Sequence record: NC_052659.1
Direction: 5' to 3' (one strand)
DNA length: 64,000 nt
Origin: Escherichia phage nieznany
Under the pieces are notes generated by a model. That model saw only the letters and a list, made by a program, of their open reading frames with translations. It did no database searches and was not told where the DNA came from. The translations under genes and the position numbers were made by a program. Numbering within the stretch: the stretch's first letter is position 1; every line of letters starts with the position of its first letter. Below are positions 1,293 to 63,145 of this stretch, piece by piece.

Positions 1293-1593
1293 GAAACCGA
1301 AAAACGAGGTTCTCAAAGTAGCCAAATCAGTTCCTAAGAAAGATAAATTTGATACGGAGGCATTCGTCTTTGACACACCAATCGAGAAGATTGAAGAAGC
1401 GTTGCAACGTCTTGAGGAGCAGGAGGCAGATCCAATGGCTGAACCACTCACGCAGGATCAACTCTACTGGTGGGGATGGTGGGAATTGCACATGCCAGAT
1501 GCAAAAAGACGTGGCATGACTACAGTTCCAATCTGTGCGAAAGAGTCTGCGGTATTGGGACTTTATGAGAAACCGAGAGGCAGGAAGAAATGA
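1246..1593 (+). CDS. hypothetical lysine-rich protein (GTG start)
   Basis: GGAGG at 1236-1240 then GTG 1246; basic N-terminus. Confidence 0.4.
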   Translation: MAKTPKKLSKPKDVTKKPKNEVLKVAKSVPKKDKFDTEAFVFDTPIEKIEEALQRLEEQEADPMAEPLTQDQLYWWGWWELHMPDAKRRGMTTVPICAKESAVLGLYEKPRGRKK

Positions 1594-2261
1594 GGCTAGT
1601 TCATGGCATAGGTATAAATGATGCAGATCATAGAATAACCGTAAATGAGACGATAGGTGGCAAATTAAAACAAACTTGGATTTGTCCTTACTACTCAACT
1701 TGGAAAGGTATTTTAATGCGCACAAAAGAATCATTTTGGTTAAAGAATCCTACCTATCATGGGTGTAAAATAAATAAAGACTGGTTAAGATTTTCTAACT
1801 TCGAAACCTGGCTAAAGGAACAACCTAGCCATGCCGAGTGGTTAGCCAATCCTAAAGATTGGGCTGTGGATAAAGATTTTGTATTTCCTGGAAATAAGAC
1901 TTATTCCGCAGAAACTTGTTGCCTTTTGCCGCGCTATGTGAATAATGCACTCTTAGATAGTTCCTCTATTCGTGGAGAGTATCCGCTTGGTGTTTCTTAT
2001 CACAAGCAACATAAAAAATTATACAGCTCTATAAAGATAGAGGGTAAACAACATTTCCTTGGCTTACATTCTGATACTAAAGAAGCTCATAAGGCTTGGC
2101 AAGTAGCTAAGATAGACGCGCTGAAAGGTATCCTTACAAGATACAGAAAGGAGAATCATTATGATAATCGTATTTGTCTAAGATTGTTGGATGAAATTTA
2201 CTTAATTGAAGAGGATGTTAAGAATGCAAGAGAAACAAAAAGGTTTGGTCGTATGGCTTGA
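1590..2261 (+). CDS. putative homing endonuclease (AP2-like DNA-binding domain), paralog of 16883..17539
   Basis: Shares WLRFSNFETW / AWFTFSNFDNW and KQHFLGLHSDTKEAHKAW / GKHLGYFATEEEAHFAW motifs with the nrdA-nrdB intergenic ORF. Confidence 0.5.
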   Translation: MRLVHGIGINDADHRITVNETIGGKLKQTWICPYYSTWKGILMRTKESFWLKNPTYHGCKINKDWLRFSNFETWLKEQPSHAEWLANPKDWAVDKDFVFPGNKTYSAETCCLLPRYVNNALLDSSSIRGEYPLGVSYHKQHKKLYSSIKIEGKQHFLGLHSDTKEAHKAWQVAKIDALKGILTRYRKENHYDNRICLRLLDEIYLIEEDVKNARETKRFGRMA

Positions 2262-2586
2262 CGATTTACGTGATCCTAAAGACTACGGCTACCCAGAGGC
2301 TATCTGGGTTAAATCAGCACAAGAGATCTGGAGTTTGTATATGACGCTTCAGGTGAAGAGCATGACGAATGAAGTGACTGAAATTCACTTTGACAATGAC
2401 CTCGGCCCTGGGTACGATGGATATTATGTATTCACCAGACTGGAGAGCATGATTGCTGCTGGAGGTTTTAAAGGTTTGCAGAGTATCTATGTGCATACAT
2501 CCAATCCGGCGGCTGCACAGAAATTCATGCTGGCAAAAGAGCATCTTGCTCGTTACGGTATTGAACTGATTCGTAAACACTATTAA
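2224..2586 (+). CDS. hypothetical protein
   Basis: ATG 2224 with GAGGA upstream; 120 aa. Confidence 0.4.
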   Translation: MQEKQKGLVVWLDDLRDPKDYGYPEAIWVKSAQEIWSLYMTLQVKSMTNEVTEIHFDNDLGPGYDGYYVFTRLESMIAAGGFKGLQSIYVHTSNPAAAQKFMLAKEHLARYGIELIRKHY

Positions 2587-2597
2587 GGAGAGAAAAC

Positions 2598-2813
2598 ATG
2601 AAAATCAAAGATCTGCCAGTAGGCACTAAGTACAAACTAGCTCAAGCCCCACGTATGGATACGACCAGTACGTTTATCGTCGTGGATATTAAGTACATGC
2701 AGGATACTTTCGGCATCCTTGAAGATGAAGTTGGTATGAGCTATTGTATTGACAAGAACGAAATCGTTCCGTGGCGAGGTCACGAACTTTGTGAATGCAT
2801 CATTGTAGAGTAA
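2598..2813 (+). CDS. hypothetical protein
   Basis: AGGAGAG RBS; 71 aa. Confidence 0.4.
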   Translation: MKIKDLPVGTKYKLAQAPRMDTTSTFIVVDIKYMQDTFGILEDEVGMSYCIDKNEIVPWRGHELCECIIVE

Positions 2814-2829
2814 AACAGAAGGGGGGGCT

Positions 2830-2961
2830 ATGTACGTTATCTGGGTAGATGAAGGTGATGGGTGGTATATCTATAAAGAAACAGGCCATTGGCCTGATGT
2901 GCAGAAAGCCCTTGACAGTTTCGATTATTGTTACTATGATTCACACTTTGAAGACGAATAG
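2830..2961 (+). CDS. small hypothetical protein (43 aa, below ORF-track cutoff)
   Basis: GGGGGG RBS then ATG 2830; in-frame to TAG 2959-2961. Confidence 0.3.
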   Translation: MYVIWVDEGDGWYIYKETGHWPDVQKALDSFDYCYYDSHFEDE

Positions 2962-2975
2962 ACAGGAGAAATAAC

Positions 2976-3143
2976 ATGTGGAATAAACCCGCACAAGGTC
3001 AACTTCCTTACCCACATCAGGTGGTGATTGCCATCACACCAGAAGGAAAAGAAGTAGAGATGTATCGTGTCGGTAATCTTTGGTTCCCTGCTGGGGACAG
3101 ATGTTATGTCTACTGGACACCTGAAATGTGGAGGGCTAAGTGA
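2976..3143 (+). CDS. small hypothetical protein (55 aa)
   Basis: AGGAGAAATAAC then ATG 2976; stop TGA 3141-3143. Confidence 0.3.
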   Translation: MWNKPAQGQLPYPHQVVIAITPEGKEVEMYRVGNLWFPAGDRCYVYWTPEMWRAK

Positions 3144-3490: not shown

Positions 3491-3984
3491 TGAGAGATAT
3501 TCTTACAGAACTTGGAGTAAACCACTGTAGTCATAAGCTTGAAGATGACTGGTTAGATTTTTATGCTATTAATTACGCTCAAGCACGTAAGAGCTTTAGT
3601 GAAGCTTTATCTCATGTTCAAGAGTTATTTAATGTAAAAGAAGATAAGGTATTGGCTAAAACATACACAATCAGTTCTTATGATTACACTAACCCTGAGT
3701 TTATGTTAAAATTTTGGAGAGATGTTAATCAGTTCATTAAAGAAAATACATCAAAGGACTGGAGTTTTTCCTATATTACTATTGAAGATACTGAAAAATT
3801 CCTAGACCAATATGATGATTTTGGTGAAGATTGTAAAGAAATTAGCGTTTATGCTTATGTTAAAAGCTTTGACCAGTTTACATCACAAGAGCAAAAAGAT
3901 GCAATCAATACAATGAGGTATTATGAGATGAAGCTGAAAGAAGCAAAAGAAGATTTAGATCGCTATAAAAGGGTGGCATATTAA
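3490..3984 (+). CDS. hypothetical protein
   Basis: 164 aa ORF; TAATG overlap. Confidence 0.45.
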   Translation: MRDILTELGVNHCSHKLEDDWLDFYAINYAQARKSFSEALSHVQELFNVKEDKVLAKTYTISSYDYTNPEFMLKFWRDVNQFIKENTSKDWSFSYITIEDTEKFLDQYDDFGEDCKEISVYAYVKSFDQFTSQEQKDAINTMRYYEMKLKEAKEDLDRYKRVAY

Positions 3985-57135: not shown

Positions 57136-57321
57136 GATCTTAACTCCAAATAGTGAGCGGCACCATTGCCGCCCTACAAGATGAATACTACGCCGCCGTC
57201 TGGTTAACGTCAACCATTTTTCAATCTTTTTTATTTTCTTTTTGCTTGCTATATATAAAGAAAAGGGCTATTATCTTTCTACCGCGCCAACCAGGGCGCA
57301 CAACAAAGAAAGGGCGATACC

Positions 57322-57585
57322 ATGACAACTACATTACACCTTATGCACTCATTGGGCTGGCAAGGCGGCACGGTGCACCAGGTAGCAAGCGCAACGGGCT
57401 TAAAGGTTGAAACAGTTCTCAACCTGGGCGATCATAGGGTGGAAGAAATAGATCATTTTGATACGTTCGCAAATGGTTATCTATGGGCTTGCAGTGGCGG
57501 CGGGGAAAGCAAGATACCACCAGGGGCGCGGGGCGATATGTATTTTTGGTTAGGTGTCCTATCCTGGCAAGAAAACAAAAAATAA
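57322..57585 (+). CDS. hypothetical protein in GC-rich island (plus strand, opposite to neighbours); coding status uncertain
   Basis: 87 aa ORF with AAGGG upstream; local GC content visibly higher than surrounding phage DNA. Confidence 0.3.
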   Translation: MTTTLHLMHSLGWQGGTVHQVASATGLKVETVLNLGDHRVEEIDHFDTFANGYLWACSGGGESKIPPGARGDMYFWLGVLSWQENKK

Positions 57586-57587
57586 TC

Positions 57588-57616
57588 TTGACAAGCCCAG
57601 GGATCGGGCTTATACT
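57588..57616 (+). promoter_or_regulatory. near-consensus sigma70 promoter TTGACA-17-TATACT on plus strand
   Basis: Seen in sequence; spacer AGCCCAGGGATCGGGCT is itself an inverted repeat. Confidence 0.5.
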
Positions 57617-57845
57617 GTTTTACATACAGAAGAGGAAGCGCCACCCCCACGGCGTAAAGGCGGGGCTAACATACCAGGGGGCACTGGTTGGAAGGTTGAT
57701 CGCCGGTAGGCTGGGCGCTATATATTTGTAAAGAAATGTAAAGATAAAATAATCGCTTGCTTTCCTAGCTGGATCTGTTATTCTTATTACATGGCGAGGG
57801 GACACGGGAGCGCGAGACAAACACCGCCCCTGCGCGTCATTCTCT

Positions 57846-57953
57846 AAATGAGATTGATTCTTATTTAATAAGGTAAATGACAATCATTCTCATTTATAAA
57901 CTTAAATGCGAATCATTATCATTTGCATTTCCATATGAGAACTCTTCTCATTT
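57846..57953. repeat. four 21-bp palindromic sites (AAATGAGA-N5-TCTCATTT type) at exact 29-bp periodicity: iteron/operator-like array
   Basis: Sites begin at 57846, 57875, 57904, 57933. Confidence 0.6.
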
Positions 57954-57975
57954 TCACCTGCATAAAAATTTTTGT

Positions 57976-58152
57976 AAACTTTAAATTTTGCTTTTGTACT
58001 TTCATTTTTGTAAAAGCAAAAAAACTTTAAATACTGTGGGCGCGCAAAATTTTTAAAATTTTCCTTGACTTTTGAGTTTTGTTTTGTATCTAACATTTTA
58101 AGATAATTTTCCTAAACTTTAAATTTTGGTTTTCAACTTTCACTTTTGTAAA
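57976..58152. repeat. two copies of a 39-bp direct repeat AAACTTTAAATTTTG(C/G)TTTT..ACTTTCA(T/C)TTTTGTAAA (57976-58014 and 58114-58152) in an AT-rich noncoding region
   Basis: Seen in sequence. Confidence 0.55.
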
Positions 58153-58394
58153 TTCTTAAAAAGTTTAAATAATTTGAGGGATTTTTGAGATAAAAGATAG
58201 TGGGAATTTGATATAACCTTTAATCTTATTGGTAAACCTTCAGGAACCCACTCAGATCGAATCCTAGTGATGCAAACTGAAAAAGACAAGGGTTTGTATA
58301 GGACAAAATAACAGGCTCTCTACGGTGCTGTAGGAGCCTTATTTCTGGGCTACAAAGTGACACCTTTGTTCTAAAAATGAAAAAAGTTAAAATA

Positions 58395-58937
58395 TCACAA
58401 ATATCGTCTTTGCGGTATTTTGTCTGGGAAAAGTATTTCGATCAGTTTATTATGATATTTGCCTAAAAGATTCTGCCCTTTCCAGGTAGCAGGGTTTAGC
58501 ACCCCTGGTTCATACATTCCCATTCCAATACCGTAAACCTTATCGTAAGGACTTGCTTCAACAAACGTTTTGTATTGGTAAAGGTGTAAGTCTGCATACA
58601 AATCTGGATTCTGTACATATTTCAAGCATAAGCCTCGCATAACAATACGCTCACGGTTCTCTTCCCACATATCATTATTAAAACCAGATACCGCTCGACC
58701 CATACGTTTGTAGTATGCTTGTTTCCTCTCGTTGTCACGTATAGTTGAGTGATCAAGGATAGCTGCTGCAATCGCATGATCCTTGAACAGCAAAGCCTTA
58801 CGCCACATCATATATTGCTCAACACAACAGAAAGTCTCATTGTAACCTGGTTCAGTTTCTGTAAAGGGTGCAATATACCAATTACTAAACACATCTTTAT
58901 GTGAAAAGAAGAATACATATTCATCAGTTATTCTCAT
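58395..58937 (-). CDS. NADAR / YbiA-like (DUF1768) domain protein
   Basis: N-terminal YVFFFSHKDVFSNWYIAPF and EQYMMWRKALLFKD resemble the NADAR family signature. Confidence 0.5.
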   Translation of the reverse strand: MRITDEYVFFFSHKDVFSNWYIAPFTETEPGYNETFCCVEQYMMWRKALLFKDHAIAAAILDHSTIRDNERKQAYYKRMGRAVSGFNNDMWEENRERIVMRGLCLKYVQNPDLYADLHLYQYKTFVEASPYDKVYGIGMGMYEPGVLNPATWKGQNLLGKYHNKLIEILFPDKIPQRRYL

Positions 58938-59149
58938 TTTTTCATGCCTTCTAAAACTTTAGCTTGCCCGTCTTGAAAAGCTTTCATCAGAACTATCTTA
59001 AGATTGACTTCCAAACGTTCTTCATCCTCTCTATAACAATCCAACACTGCTTTAAGTTCATCATAGTGGTTCAGAATAGGTTTAAAGATTTCATGATCTG
59101 CTAAACGTGCCATAGTTTCTCCTTTGTTAGTCCATCCACCAGTAGCCAT
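58934..59149 (-). CDS. hypothetical protein
   Basis: 71 aa ORF. Confidence 0.4.
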   Translation of the reverse strand: MATGGWTNKGETMARLADHEIFKPILNHYDELKAVLDCYREDEERLEVNLKIVLMKAFQDGQAKVLEGMKK

Positions 59150-59492
59150 AAACTGCGTCTGCGTCGATGAGTTTGTGTTTGTTGTTCCGCATGTAGTCTA
59201 AGATAAGTAGACGTTTATTGTATCTGGAGAGATTATGACCCTCTTTTCCGCCATAGTCAAAATATTTTGCAAGATCTTTACACTCAAACAAAATCAGTTC
59301 GGGAGTTTCTTCACACTGGTCTGTCTGGTACACTTGACGAATGATCATGTATACATCGTCGTCTTCCGCTAAATGCTCTACTGGTCCACATCCAGCAGGA
59401 ACAAATTCATAGTCCCATCTGATCAGATGTTTCTCTACTGCTTCAAAGAAATCCATCCTTTCATTGCGCATAATTTGAACGTCAACTAACAT
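59127..59492 (-). CDS. hypothetical protein
   Basis: 121 aa ORF. Confidence 0.4.
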   Translation of the reverse strand: MLVDVQIMRNERMDFFEAVEKHLIRWDYEFVPAGCGPVEHLAEDDDVYMIIRQVYQTDQCEETPELILFECKDLAKYFDYGGKEGHNLSRYNKRLLILDYMRNNKHKLIDADAVYGYWWMD

Positions 59493-60946
59493 GTTTCCTC
59501 CTCTCTCATTATTCCACCTGCTTGGTTGATAGCACTTAAGACGATAGCCAAATCCTCGCGCAGGAAGGTTTCACTATGACCATCTTTCATGTGCAAGCGT
59601 TCTACACAGCCAATAGACGGTAGAATCTGATCAGTCTTAGACTTTAGCTTACTCTCTAACGCCCTGCAAGCTTGGTAGGACGGCAGATCGAACAATGCTA
59701 TACGGCGCATAGAGTAATTGTTGTTTGCATTCTGCCCTTTGATCCTGATATCACTGTCCTTTGCAATCCCCAACTTGTAAGCTCCCGTGTCTTCTCCGTA
59801 CTCATCAAGAATAATATTGATGTAAAATTCTTGCATATTTCTGTTCTTACAGCCTGGACAACCTTTCCCATTGAGATAATCGGTAGGTGTGATCGTTTGC
59901 TCTCCATGCTCCCTACATAGATATTTAAACTTGCTGTTATTGCTTACCTTATCAATGAATCCTATAAATTGATCCCCTCGTTCCTGGCAAGCTTTGGTCA
60001 TACGGTAGGCCCATTGTTCAGGAGTGTAATGATAATATTTAGAACAACGGCAAGGAAGGCCACCCCTTTTCAAATGACTCATCTTCATCTCAAATTTATT
60101 ATCGCATAAGCCTTCTTTACAATAATCATCCTCTGCACATATAGGACATTCTACAATCCAGTAAACCTGACGACCTAATCTATCTACTCTATCGCTACGA
60201 TAATATTTACGCTCTACATTATCAGGACAAGCTTTTATAAAATCTTCAACATGTTGTTTATCCTCCATAGTATTCCTTTGTTTCGTCATTTCTCTTTGAC
60301 AACTGTAGCATCCAGTCCCTTGTTTAGCACTGTTTACAGTGGTAGTGCACCATTGACCATGAACCTTACACTCACAAATCAACTTAGTGCGGGAACCGTT
60401 CCACGGTTCCACATAGCCTCTAACAATCCAGGGTTTTTCTTTATAAGCTTCTTCTACTTCTTCTTTATGTTTCTCCCATGCAATCGATGTTCTTTCTCTG
60501 TTTGCTTCTCCCATACACTTCCTGCATCCACTCCCGTTTTTCGCAGAAGATATAGAAGTAGACCTCCACTCCCCATGTAAAGCACAACAACAAACCAGTT
60601 TAGTATTCCATCCTTTCCATTCTCCGTGCCATCCTGTAACAGTCCAAAACTTACCTGCCTGATTGTAAGTGGTTTGCACTTCTTCTTTATATTGCTCCCA
60701 GGTTTTTGATTTGTTTATAGATACTGCTTTACTTATAATCTCCCTACCGCATTCTGGACAACCCCTCCCTAGTTTAGCGGTATTTATGCTTGTTGTTTTC
60801 CATTCTCCATGCAGAGCACAGATGCATCTAAGTTTAGTTTTATTGCCGTTCCACGGCTCAATATAATCTACAACAGTCCAAGACTTACCTTGATAAGCTT
60901 GTTTTATATCTGTTTTATATTGTTCCCAAGTGACTATTTTTGGCAC
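59486..60946 (-). CDS. zinc-finger repeat protein (three or four about 65-aa Cys/His modules) with possible C-terminal GIY-YIG-like nuclease domain
   Basis: Repeated W..Y.EPWNG..TKL.C.C..HGEW.T....AK.G.GC..C modules; C-terminal FYINIIL-x9-YKLGIA-x6-R resembles GIY-(10)-YIG-R. Confidence 0.35.
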   Translation of the reverse strand: MPKIVTWEQYKTDIKQAYQGKSWTVVDYIEPWNGNKTKLRCICALHGEWKTTSINTAKLGRGCPECGREIISKAVSINKSKTWEQYKEEVQTTYNQAGKFWTVTGWHGEWKGWNTKLVCCCALHGEWRSTSISSAKNGSGCRKCMGEANRERTSIAWEKHKEEVEEAYKEKPWIVRGYVEPWNGSRTKLICECKVHGQWCTTTVNSAKQGTGCYSCQREMTKQRNTMEDKQHVEDFIKACPDNVERKYYRSDRVDRLGRQVYWIVECPICAEDDYCKEGLCDNKFEMKMSHLKRGGLPCRCSKYYHYTPEQWAYRMTKACQERGDQFIGFIDKVSNNSKFKYLCREHGEQTITPTDYLNGKGCPGCKNRNMQEFYINIILDEYGEDTGAYKLGIAKDSDIRIKGQNANNNYSMRRIALFDLPSYQACRALESKLKSKTDQILPSIGCVERLHMKDGHSETFLREDLAIVLSAINQAGGIMREEETC

Positions 60947-61034
60947 ACCTCCCCCTTTAGCTATTAGTGCGAGCCTACAACAAAAGAATAACTAAAATCC
61001 CTCCATAACAAATGCCCCTTGCGGGGCATCTTTA

Positions 61035-62174
61035 TTAGAACACGCTACCAAGTGTAGTGGAACGTTGTGTTACAGGCTCCAGCACCACTCGCAAAGTGTT
61101 TCCTGGTGTAGTGCTCATAACCAGAATCTTACCACCTTCAATCAGATCACAAGTTAGACCATCAGCCGTTGCACATAGATCAATATGTGGATCACCATCT
61201 TCATCCAGGATAACATAACTGTTGGTTTCCATTGCTTCCACTTCATCATCTTTCAAACTTTGTAGATAGATGTTCAGGGAACAAGCACCCGACAAAAACT
61301 TAGTAGGGGTGAAGTCGTGCCAGTTATTGATCCAATTCACCTTCAAGGTTTTGCCATTAGCTACGATAGAAGCCACATTCCATTTAGCATCGTTCCCTAA
61401 AGAAATACCCATCATTTCAAGACATTCTTTAAAAGTCATTTTTGGATAGAAATTCAATTCTTCTACAATGCCTTGAATAACATCGAAAGACAACTCTGTG
61501 CTAACATCCCATAAACGTTGGAAGTTATCTACGTGCTTTTTATTTACCAAGTTCTTATCCAAGTAATCTAACATAGTTTCACTAGACAGTTTATCGTAAT
61601 TGAAACTGTAGTAGATACGACTAGGACGGTTTACAAAATATTCCGAGATATAACCACTATTTTTAGTGAGGATGTAAAGTTTATTCCCACTTCCTGTTCC
61701 ATCCAACAAGGTCAACAGTGCTTCCTGATCTTCTTTCTTAGCGTACACTTTATCAAATTCGTCAAATAAAACAACAGCACGATCTGTAATTTTACTCATA
61801 AATTCTAAGAAGCCAGCATCTGTGTAAGGCTGTGTAACCAAAATGGTTGGAATACCTAAACCTTCTGTGGACATTAGAGACATGCTAATCAGTTTAGCTA
61901 ACATCGTCTTACCACTGCCTTTTGTCCCTGTCAGTAACACCCCAGTATTTTTACCTTCTTTACTACGACGAGCAAATGTTTTAATAACATGTGCGGCGCG
62001 ATTTTTAGTTTCCCCATAAAGAGTGTTCGGAAGAGAGAAACTTTCACCACGCACTAAAGAGTAGTTACCGTGCGGATCGCAGTTGACAACCCAAACTCCA
62101 GCAGGAAGTTTATTAGCTTCAACGCCATATTCCTTATTTACAACAGCTACATCTCCAAAAATAGTGTATTTCAT
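61035..62174 (-). CDS. AAA-family ATPase
   Basis: Walker A GTKGSGKT, Walker B VVLFDEFDK, sensor-1-like ILTKN and RPSRI. Confidence 0.6.
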   Translation of the reverse strand: MKYTIFGDVAVVNKEYGVEANKLPAGVWVVNCDPHGNYSLVRGESFSLPNTLYGETKNRAAHVIKTFARRSKEGKNTGVLLTGTKGSGKTMLAKLISMSLMSTEGLGIPTILVTQPYTDAGFLEFMSKITDRAVVLFDEFDKVYAKKEDQEALLTLLDGTGSGNKLYILTKNSGYISEYFVNRPSRIYYSFNYDKLSSETMLDYLDKNLVNKKHVDNFQRLWDVSTELSFDVIQGIVEELNFYPKMTFKECLEMMGISLGNDAKWNVASIVANGKTLKVNWINNWHDFTPTKFLSGACSLNIYLQSLKDDEVEAMETNSYVILDEDGDPHIDLCATADGLTCDLIEGGKILVMSTTPGNTLRVVLEPVTQRSTTLGSVF

Positions 62175-62715: not shown

Positions 62716-62907
62716 TTACAACCAACCTTTTGCCTGATAGCCTTTAGAAAATCCATCTTCCCATTCTTCGAATTCCTTTTTGTGTGTCATTGGACAATAT
62801 GGATTTACTTTATTAAACATACCAAACTTGAACCCTGCGGTATACCCCTTCTTAAAAGCTATTGATTCTAAAGAGATCATATTCTTTCTCCTCTTAGAAC
62901 TCGACAA
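62716..62907 (-). CDS. hypothetical small protein
   Basis: 63 aa ORF. Confidence 0.35.
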   Translation of the reverse strand: MSSSKRRKNMISLESIAFKKGYTAGFKFGMFNKVNPYCPMTHKKEFEEWEDGFSKGYQAKGWL

Positions 62908-63145
62908 TGATTTTGTCTAAGTGTTCTGCTTCAACTTGGGATAATGTTAACACCTGCACCAAACCTCTGTCAATACCAATTTTAATGACTTGCAAATAAT
63001 CACCAAAAAGATCTGATAAAGAAATAGCATGTTCCGTAACTACAATAACTTCATTACCTTTAGTGTATTCTTTCCACACCCGACCACATTTATAAATGTA
63101 ATCTTTTTGATCTTCAGTAATCATTTTAGGTTTGATACTTAGCAT
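62894..63145 (-). CDS. hypothetical protein
   Basis: 83 aa ORF. Confidence 0.4.
   Translation of the reverse strand: MLSIKPKMITEDQKDYIYKCGRVWKEYTKGNEVIVVTEHAISLSDLFGDYLQVIKIGIDRGLVQVLTLSQVEAEHLDKIIVEF

Follow-up and report, generated by a model that had tools for sequence, protein, structure and literature searches.

The open reading frame at positions 59486..60946 (minus strand) of the window, by which we mean the whole 64,000-nt stretch of phage DNA analyzed here, is a complete coding sequence for a protein of 486 aa (plus the stop codon) in which an array of CapR-type modules is followed by a C-terminal T5orf172-like domain with the GIY-YIG fold and invariant putative catalytic residues, and the gene is part of a cassette that has been replaced as a block between near-identical flanks. 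We consider it probable that the product of this gene is a site-specific endonuclease of the CapR-array/T5orf172 class, modular and free-standing, and that it acts as a homing-type element. In the mechanism that we envisage, an extended DNA target would be recognized by five zinc-binding modules, each folded independently of the others like a bead on a string, that tether the monomeric catalytic domain. The presumed task of Y375, K391 and R401 in this domain is to position the scissile phosphate, and that of E431 to bind the metal. During co-infection, the enzyme would cut related phage genomes that carry another allele in the slot downstream of the AAA-ATPase gene, and recombinational repair would then copy the cassette together with some of the flank into the cut genome, co-converting the 3' end of the ATPase gene.

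The reading frame, which had been proposed in the initial annotation, is genuine: it starts with GTG, a strong Shine-Dalgarno region (AAAGGGGGAGGT, 60947..60958, minus strand) lies directly 5' of this codon, and the resulting N-terminus (MPKIVTWE...) is common to the homologues. The source, a coliphage similar to phAPEC8, belongs to the genus Phapecoctavirus (subfamily Stephanstirmvirinae). The region 59000-61500, like the gene itself, shares 99.8% identity with ESCO13, Schickermooser and ZCKP1, and the region does so with other phages as well; in the three named genomes RefSeq labels the gene 'endonuclease'. The protein matches PHROG 681, also named 'endonuclease' (E=8.8e-84), and is identical to UniProt A0A1D7XFK1, a 'CapR homology domain-containing protein' found in the viral structure library. 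UniProt, RefSeq and PHROGs already list this protein, which is uncharacterized; its architecture has been published. Scans of the protein with NCBIfam and PADLOC yielded nothing meaningful, a paralogue was not detected by tblastn in the rest of the window, and no tRNA genes were found in the window.

Three tandem repeats and a degenerate fourth had been noticed in the N-terminal part of the protein. The three N-terminal repeats are well supported: their pairwise identity is 44-53%, the alignment scores are 22-34 SD above those of shuffled controls (0 of 300 shuffles reach them), and the out-of-register self-match of the repeats has E=3.6e-36 in tblastn; at the DNA level, the same modules are merely 58-61% identical, with short shared seeds. 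The remainder of the array does contain more repeat material, but not a single degenerate copy: a module HMM and alignments resolve five modules of two kinds, four of type A and one of the canonical CapR type, and the supposed fourth repeat is actually two modules, one of the CapR type (aa 223-305) and one of type A (aa 306-370). The former differs from the others in its C-x2-C...C-x-C pattern and is detected by the Pfam profile only. The Pfam CapR homology domain (PF21817) matches the protein in five stretches at 99.3 bits, compared with a gathering cutoff of 24.2 bits (E=1.4e-28), so that the initial identification of the repeats as zinc fingers is borne out, the modules being of the CapR/DUF723/DUF4379 kind. 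Their assignment as DNA-binding zinc fingers is supported by this family membership, from which binding of zinc and DNA would follow.

The type A copies (aa 1-72, 77-150, 151-222 and 306-370) share the motif W-x2-[YH]-K...G...W-x-G-x2-TKL-x3-C-x2-H-G-x-W...K-x-G-x-G-C-x2-C, that is, a C-x2-H...C-x2-C pattern as in DUF723/DUF4379; the module alignment shows no variation at the first Cys or in the C-x2-C pair and very little at the His. Module 1 (aa 1-72, 60731..60946, minus strand; HMM domain aa 3-70) has pairwise z-scores of 25-34 and the candidate ligands C43, H46, C63 and C66, of which the three cysteines are invariant in the module alignment. The candidate ligands of module 2 (aa 77-150, 60497..60718, minus strand) are C121, H124, C141 and C144, and those of module 3 (aa 151-222, 60281..60496, minus strand) are C193, H196, C213 and C216, with C193, C213 and C216 invariant in the full-length alignment. 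Module 4, the canonical CapR type (aa 223-305, 60032..60280, minus strand), includes the best Pfam CapR stretch (aa 257-302, profile positions 25-67 of 67) and carries C267-x2-C270 and C299-x-C301, all four invariant in the full-length alignment. It thus displays the four-Cys CapR motif, with 28 residues between the Cys pairs compared with 24-26 reported previously (Netter et al., 2021). Module 5 (aa 306-370, 59837..60031, minus strand; HMM domain of the same extent) is a divergent type A copy with z-scores of 4.7-9.5 against modules 1-3 and with invariant candidate ligands C344, H347, C363 and C366. A recent internal triplication of modules 1-3 was considered and rejected: none of them is closer to its neighbors than to a module of another allele, as in the case of module 2, whose nearest relative is a module of another allele (70% identity to the P0004 module, compared with 47-55% to its neighbors). 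Accordingly, the array appears to be old or shuffled.

The biochemical precedent for such modules is CapR, the capsid repressor of the Vibrio cholerae satellite PLE, a zinc-finger DNA-binding protein in which the CxxC...CxC motif is required for DNA binding: a quadruple Cys-to-Ser mutant loses this activity, and zinc-dependent, sequence-specific binding was demonstrated by EMSA, for PLE CapR only (Netter et al., 2021, PMC8096241). Module 4 bears the same motif; unlike the protein described here, PLE CapR consists of just one DNA-binding module (15.5 kDa), has no nuclease domain and functions as a transcriptional repressor. In the AlphaFold full-length model (mean pLDDT 81, pTM 0.41), a unit consisting of a helix, three short strands, a short helix and a linker helix occurs five times; the low pTM is expected of independent beads on a string. 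The modules may adopt a dsRBD-like alpha-beta-beta-beta-alpha fold with a zinc knuckle. A Foldseek search of the PDB with the full-length model produced no significant match (best E=1.5e-3, TM about 0.09). Tandem dsRBD proteins head these weak matches, an observation that we regard as a lead only.

The C-terminal domain (aa 371-486, 59489..59836, minus strand) is a putative nuclease. The motif FYINIIL-x9-YKLGIA-x6-R, in which a resemblance to the GIY-YIG core had been recognized, is located at aa 374-401, and its residues Y375, K391, G393 and R401 show no variation among 151 relatives, all representatives of clusters and at most 50% identical to one another. Altogether, ten core residues of the domain are 100% invariant in this set, the other six being C427, E431, D455, G456, E459 and T460. 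The spacing follows the logic of the GIY-YIG fold, with the Tyr in strand 1, [K]-x-G in strand 2, the Arg eight residues after the Gly in helix 1 and the Glu on the helix after strand 3, and the domain displays the beta-beta-alpha-beta-alpha core of this alpha/beta fold. In particular, Y375, K391-L-G393, R401 and E431 reproduce the T5orf172/MUG113 motif (a Tyr, K-[ILF]-G, an Arg eight positions beyond the Gly, and a Glu), in which the second Tyr of the GIY-YIG motif is replaced by Lys (K391) and the His or Tyr of helix 1 by Gln (Q405).

The assignment to a particular branch of the superfamily depends on the relatives of the protein. The full-length protein has no GIY-YIG, T5orf172 or MUG113 match in Pfam even at E<=10, and aa 366-486 alone reach 13.7 bits (E=0.092) with T5orf172, below the gathering cutoff of 20 bits. 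T5orf172 is, however, the top Pfam match in 11 of 13 family members (best E=0.0022), and MUG113 is a match in 4. A search with a profile of the domain extends to more distant proteins (E=1e-38 to 1e-12), among which P0029, P0031 and P0043 (profile E<=1e-28) pass the PF10544 (T5orf172) cutoff and P0051 (profile E=3e-12) passes the PF13455 (MUG113) cutoff; P0031 is named 'GIY-YIG nuclease family protein' at NCBI. Given that these distant relatives exceed the T5orf172 and MUG113 cutoffs, the C-terminal domain is linked to both families by transitive homology. Structural neighbors of A0A1D7XFK1 within the viral structure library carry, among others, the names GIY-YIG domain, homing endonuclease, T5 Orf172 and MUG113. 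Both lines of evidence argue against the possibility that the C-terminus lacks a nuclease fold. The GIY-YIG-like character originally suggested for this domain therefore stands at the level of the superfamily, whereas the canonical family (PF01541), which had been named as the profile to search, does not match at E<=10; the branch is T5orf172/MUG113.

Querying PDB sequences with the protein, as well as with two C-terminal profiles, gave chance matches only (e.g., FtsY, GST and interferon gamma), and hhalign of the C-terminal profile with residues 1-97 of I-TevI (sequence verified against T4) gave a probability of 0.8% and no alignment. Given this result, the absence of a PF01541 match, and the presence of Lys391 and Gln405, we file the domain under the superfamily fold and not under PF01541. 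The equivalence of its residues to those of characterized GIY-YIG enzymes rests on the fold and on the motif spacing, by which, together with the secondary structure, Y375, K391, R401 and E431 would correspond to Y6, Y17, R27 and E75 of I-TevI. The sub-threshold T5orf172 score of the protein taken alone, the absence of PF01541 and the failure to align with I-TevI all count against the homing reading. The differences from I-TevI and the T4 Seg-type enzymes extend to the domain order, which is reversed (the catalytic domain of I-TevI is N-terminal, here it is C-terminal), to the active site (Lys for the Tyr of YIG, Gln for His31) and to the DNA-binding part, with five zinc modules here compared with a zinc-finger linker and a helix-turn-helix in I-TevI. 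The likeness to the structure-specific GIY-YIG nucleases Slx1/HIGLE is in the fold alone, with just 13% identity; these are eukaryotic proteins partnered by Slx4 with a C-terminal RING/PHD-type zinc finger, in contrast to the N-terminal array found here.

The substitutions K391 and Q405 could also be read as signs of a dead nuclease domain, in which case the protein would be a catalytically inactive, CapR-like DNA-binding repressor. Such a regulator would have precedents, given that CapR itself is a repressor derived from modules of this kind (Netter et al., 2021, PMC8096241) and that I-TevI also serves as a repressor (PMC10448857). We nevertheless find this scenario very unlikely: the Lys and Gln are present family-wide in T5orf172-type domains, and the invariance of Y375, K391, R401, E431 and the DGxxET motif in 151 diverse relatives is unexpected for a decayed active site. 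Odn (Gp88) of phage ICP1, an origin-directed nuclease that combines RepA_N with T5orf172 and cuts the PLE origin, is the sole member of the T5orf172 branch for which DNA cleavage has been shown, and its activity is Glu-dependent (Barth et al., 2021). Its T5orf172-type domain, which we compare here by description, is active and likewise has no helix-1 His or Tyr, with the Arg and the Glu retained. Given that this only assayed T5orf172 enzyme is a Glu-dependent nuclease, the interpretation of the domain as a nuclease is supported.

The endonuclease gene follows the AAA-ATPase gene (61035..62174), and its last codons (...EETC*) overlap the Shine-Dalgarno sequence and the ATG of the next gene (59127..59492). 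The gene and the upstream intergenic region form an exchangeable cassette (59505..61031) that is replaced as a block in sister phages. In blastn comparisons with phAPEC8 and tuntematon, the breakpoints map to about 59502-59518 and 61030-61032; identity in the flanks is 94-100%, whereas the proteins encoded inside are only 39% identical. The phAPEC8 allele (394 aa) has two N-terminal type A modules and shows 39% identity over the full length, nuclease domain included, and the tuntematon allele (332 aa) has a single such module. The sister genus Justusliebigvirus is represented by muut, in which an allele of 396 aa with 37% identity occupies the slot that follows the ATPase gene; the idea that this gene is the published RepA_N Odn-like nuclease of that phage was rejected, because it is another CapR-array allele. 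Across phAPEC8, tuntematon and muut, the number of N-terminal modules in one and the same slot is 1, 2 or 3, and the alleles are 37-39% identical.

The cassette also includes a GC-rich hairpin (AUGCCCCGCAAGGGGCAU followed by UUUGUU; 61012..61029, minus strand) located just past the ATPase stop codon. This palindromic stem, detected by a pattern scan, is present in both the MFE and the centroid RNA structures and is annotated as a terminator in Schickermooser; it is allele-specific, with another hairpin in its place in phAPEC8 and tuntematon. A pattern scan of the upstream intergenic region found no sigma-70-like promoter, and the whole upstream RNA folds no better than shuffled sequences (z=-0.56), with no clear occlusion of the Shine-Dalgarno sequence. 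The adjacent end of the ATPase gene shows clustered differences: in the comparison with tuntematon, 6 of the 12 differing codons, all of them silent, are among the last 20 of the 380 codons (binomial P=1.5e-5), and in the comparison with phAPEC8, 4 of the 25 differing codons are in this segment (P=0.04). The mobility of the gene is supported by the sharp breakpoints, the 37-39% identical alleles in a single slot, the hairpin specific to each allele and the silent substitutions at the end of the ATPase gene. A sharp-edged cassette with conserved flanks, located next to a conserved gene with a cluster of silent substitutions, is what is expected of a homing gene.

Sporadic presence and absence, another hallmark of such genes, was not seen in the genomes inspected. 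The search of sister genomes for an empty target site produced no convincing case, with the slot filled in phAPEC8, tuntematon, Schickermooser and muut. EP57 is the sole record without the gene and shows an in-frame ATPase fusion; we discarded it as an empty site because this 130-kb assembly is full of fragmented open reading frames and has more deletions nearby, so that it represents either a poor assembly or a deletion mutant. The C-terminal subfamily occurs at 166 places in 155 phage records, essentially in one copy each. Permanent residence in a single copy is equally compatible with a useful gene that is retained and with a selfish one, which weighs against the homing reading and brings in the possibility, in our view the leading rival although an unlikely one, that the gene is a domesticated, beneficial site-specific nuclease directed against competitors (co-infecting phages, satellites or plasmids), similarly to Odn, with an array diversified by an arms race. 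The single-copy occupancy of the slot in all good assemblies examined from Phapecoctavirus and Justusliebigvirus, the strict invariance of the catalytic core despite the low identity of whole alleles, the range of N-terminal module numbers and the precedent of Odn and the Odn-like genes of the coliphages Inny, Muut and Mt1B1_P17 would all be compatible with such a role. However, there is no match to a PADLOC defense family, and the DNA-binding part is the generic CapR/DUF723 array typical of putative homing endonuclease genes (HEGs), unlike domains such as RepA_N that are captured from satellites. The block exchange and the clustering of silent sites in the flank are, furthermore, what homing predicts.

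The same exchange pattern bears on a third alternative. Phages of similar size often encode nucleases that act on host DNA, and the gene resides within a block of small genes of unknown function, so that a non-specific or host-directed enzyme degrading the bacterial chromosome during infection might be envisaged. For non-specific degradation, however, a five-module array for reading sequence would be needless, and the replacement of whole allelic cassettes with varying module numbers points to changing specificity; we regard this possibility as very unlikely, too. A homing-type, site-specific endonuclease remains the reading that we prefer.

A broader and more speculative interpretation, which we hold to be improbable, is that of a permanently resident, rapidly re-targetable 'natural zinc-finger nuclease', as opposed to a transient selfish element, that Stephanstirmvirinae would keep in a fixed slot for inter-phage or anti-satellite warfare, its specificity being re-programmed by gain, loss or swap of modules of about 70 aa, each of which would read a fixed number of base pairs. 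Should a simple module-to-DNA code exist, programmable nucleases would gain a new scaffold in this family. Beyond annotation, the significance of the present analysis is small: in phAPEC8-like coliphages that are candidates for therapy, 'hypothetical protein' or 'endonuclease' can be replaced with a specific putative assignment, namely a five-module CapR/DUF723 zinc-finger array joined to a T5orf172-like nuclease of the GIY-YIG fold. The locus is also a clean natural case in which alleles with 1 to 3 N-terminal modules replace one another as whole cassettes between near-identical flanks, and the slot would offer a convenient, tractable E. coli phage system for questions on T5orf172 homing and on the DNA specificity of module arrays.

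The architecture, which the initial annotation described as unusual, is in fact a published one. CapR was shown to be related to the N-termini of putative HEGs of ICP1 with C-terminal T5orf172-like domains (Netter et al., 2021, PMC8096241), and in a survey of 229 T5orf172 putative HEGs, 87% carried CapR, DUF723 or DUF4397 zinc-finger modules; these are often repeated (up to six), the repeats recombine with one another, and domains are swapped (Barth, Dunham and Seed, 2023, PMC10448857). The same authors stressed that homing by T5orf172 genes is without experimental verification. The main text of that survey makes no mention of phapecoctaviruses, and the sub-threshold Pfam score of their branch, at the cutoff used there, may be the reason for the omission. 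Given that this sub-branch falls below the Pfam T5orf172 threshold, surveys using that threshold undercount it. Overall, the evidence supports the view that the initial annotation was essentially right and that the gene is an ordinary member of a described architecture, with corrections to the branch, the module count and the claim of unusualness.

The closest known layout is that of gp165, gp174, gp121, gp53 and gp130 of ICP1, which likewise combine an N-terminal CapR/DUF723-type array with a C-terminal T5orf172-like domain, and the putative HEGs of ICP1 share with the present gene the varying number of repeats and the position at a boundary of genetic exchange (Netter et al., 2021; PMC10448857). 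Odn, in contrast, targets DNA through a captured RepA_N domain instead of zinc-finger modules and is a domesticated anti-satellite weapon. The alignment of the 486-aa protein with ORF165, a putative HEG of ICP1 known from the literature, covers 320 aa at 29% identity (E=3e-30), with the Y/K/G/R/Q/E residues matched; ORF165 itself is below the T5orf172 cutoff (18 bits). Several features set the present family apart from the ICP1 set: it belongs to Stephanstirmvirinae of E. coli with a single copy per genome, whereas ICP1 has expanded paralogues; its slot is always occupied, whereas the CapR/T5orf172 genes of ICP1 are variably present; and, unlike the ICP1 set, its C-terminal subfamily has an invariant C427 and a D-G-x-x-E-T motif of its own.

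Every Zn module of the endonuclease (window 59837-60946) is predicted to adopt an alpha-beta-beta-beta-alpha topology in the structural model m0bd323bcb76a. When the full-length model was compared with known structures using Foldseek, the sole matches, all of them weak, were the tandem dsRBD proteins TARBP2, Loqs, NF90 and DRB4 (best probability 0.54), and Pfam DSRM_2 was matched at aa 27-53 of the endonuclease with E=0.068. Each Zn module could be built on a fold like that of a dsRBD, supplemented by a Zn knuckle. Aa 8-248 of the protein also match PHROG 559, which is annotated as 'HNH endonuclease' (E=6e-25).

Within the putative nuclease domain (window 59489-59836), C427, located one helical turn ahead of the putative catalytic Glu431, and the D-G-x-x-E-T motif (aa 455-460) are invariant in the C-terminal subfamily (151 representatives, at most 50% identical to each other). 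The motif occupies the position of 'EWF' in the Pfam model of T5orf172 domains. Among metagenomic relatives, P0002 (669 aa) consists of two diverged paralogues of the endonuclease gene fused head-to-tail, and P0027 and P0028 (665 aa) each contain about eight related Zn modules. Judged by eye, the C-terminal region of P0027 and P0028 looks like a Vsr/PD-(D/E)xK-type nuclease; if this resemblance is genuine, the Zn-module array would be common to different nuclease classes.

The final codons of the endonuclease gene, GAGGAGGAAACATGTTAG (window 59486-59504), encode ...EETC* and also supply both the Shine-Dalgarno sequence and the ATG start codon for the 121-aa gene that follows (59127..59492). 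The EE(T/I)C* ending is common to different alleles, and it is within this overlap that the cassette has its 3' recombination boundary. In Escherichia phage vB_EcoM_EP57 (OR544956.1), window 59505-61044 is absent, which fuses the ATPase in frame with the downstream 121-aa protein to yield a 501-aa product (1547-3052 of the EP57 locus). Given that this record is just 130.7 kb long, that many of its ORFs are broken into fragments and that two further segments nearby are missing from it, it represents either a mutant with multiple deletions or an artefact of assembly.

Directly 3' of the ATPase stop codon lies a GC-rich hairpin, AUGCCCCGCAAGGGGCAU (window 61012-61029), to which AAACCCGCUUCGGCGGGUUU corresponds in phAPEC8 and tuntematon (about 3690-3715 and about 3505-3530 of the respective loci); the hairpin is allele-specific, each cassette carrying its own GC-rich version immediately past this stop. 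No promoter-like site was found between the hairpin and the endonuclease gene, and accordingly, expression of this gene probably depends on read-through.

Two more short hypervariable patches are present in the flanks, at about 58650-58799, within a 180-aa DUF1768-like ORF (58395..58937), and at about 62980-63129, within ORF 62894..63145, with identities to phAPEC8 and tuntematon of 70% and 74-75%, compared with 93-100% in the surrounding flanks. The stretch at about 57200-58390 is poor in ORFs, with only short, overlapping ones; the corresponding region of Schickermooser is annotated as gene fragments with frameshifts, while tuntematon and muut have it recorded as 'repeat_region', and 52 nt (57845-57896) match phAPEC8 in inverted orientation.
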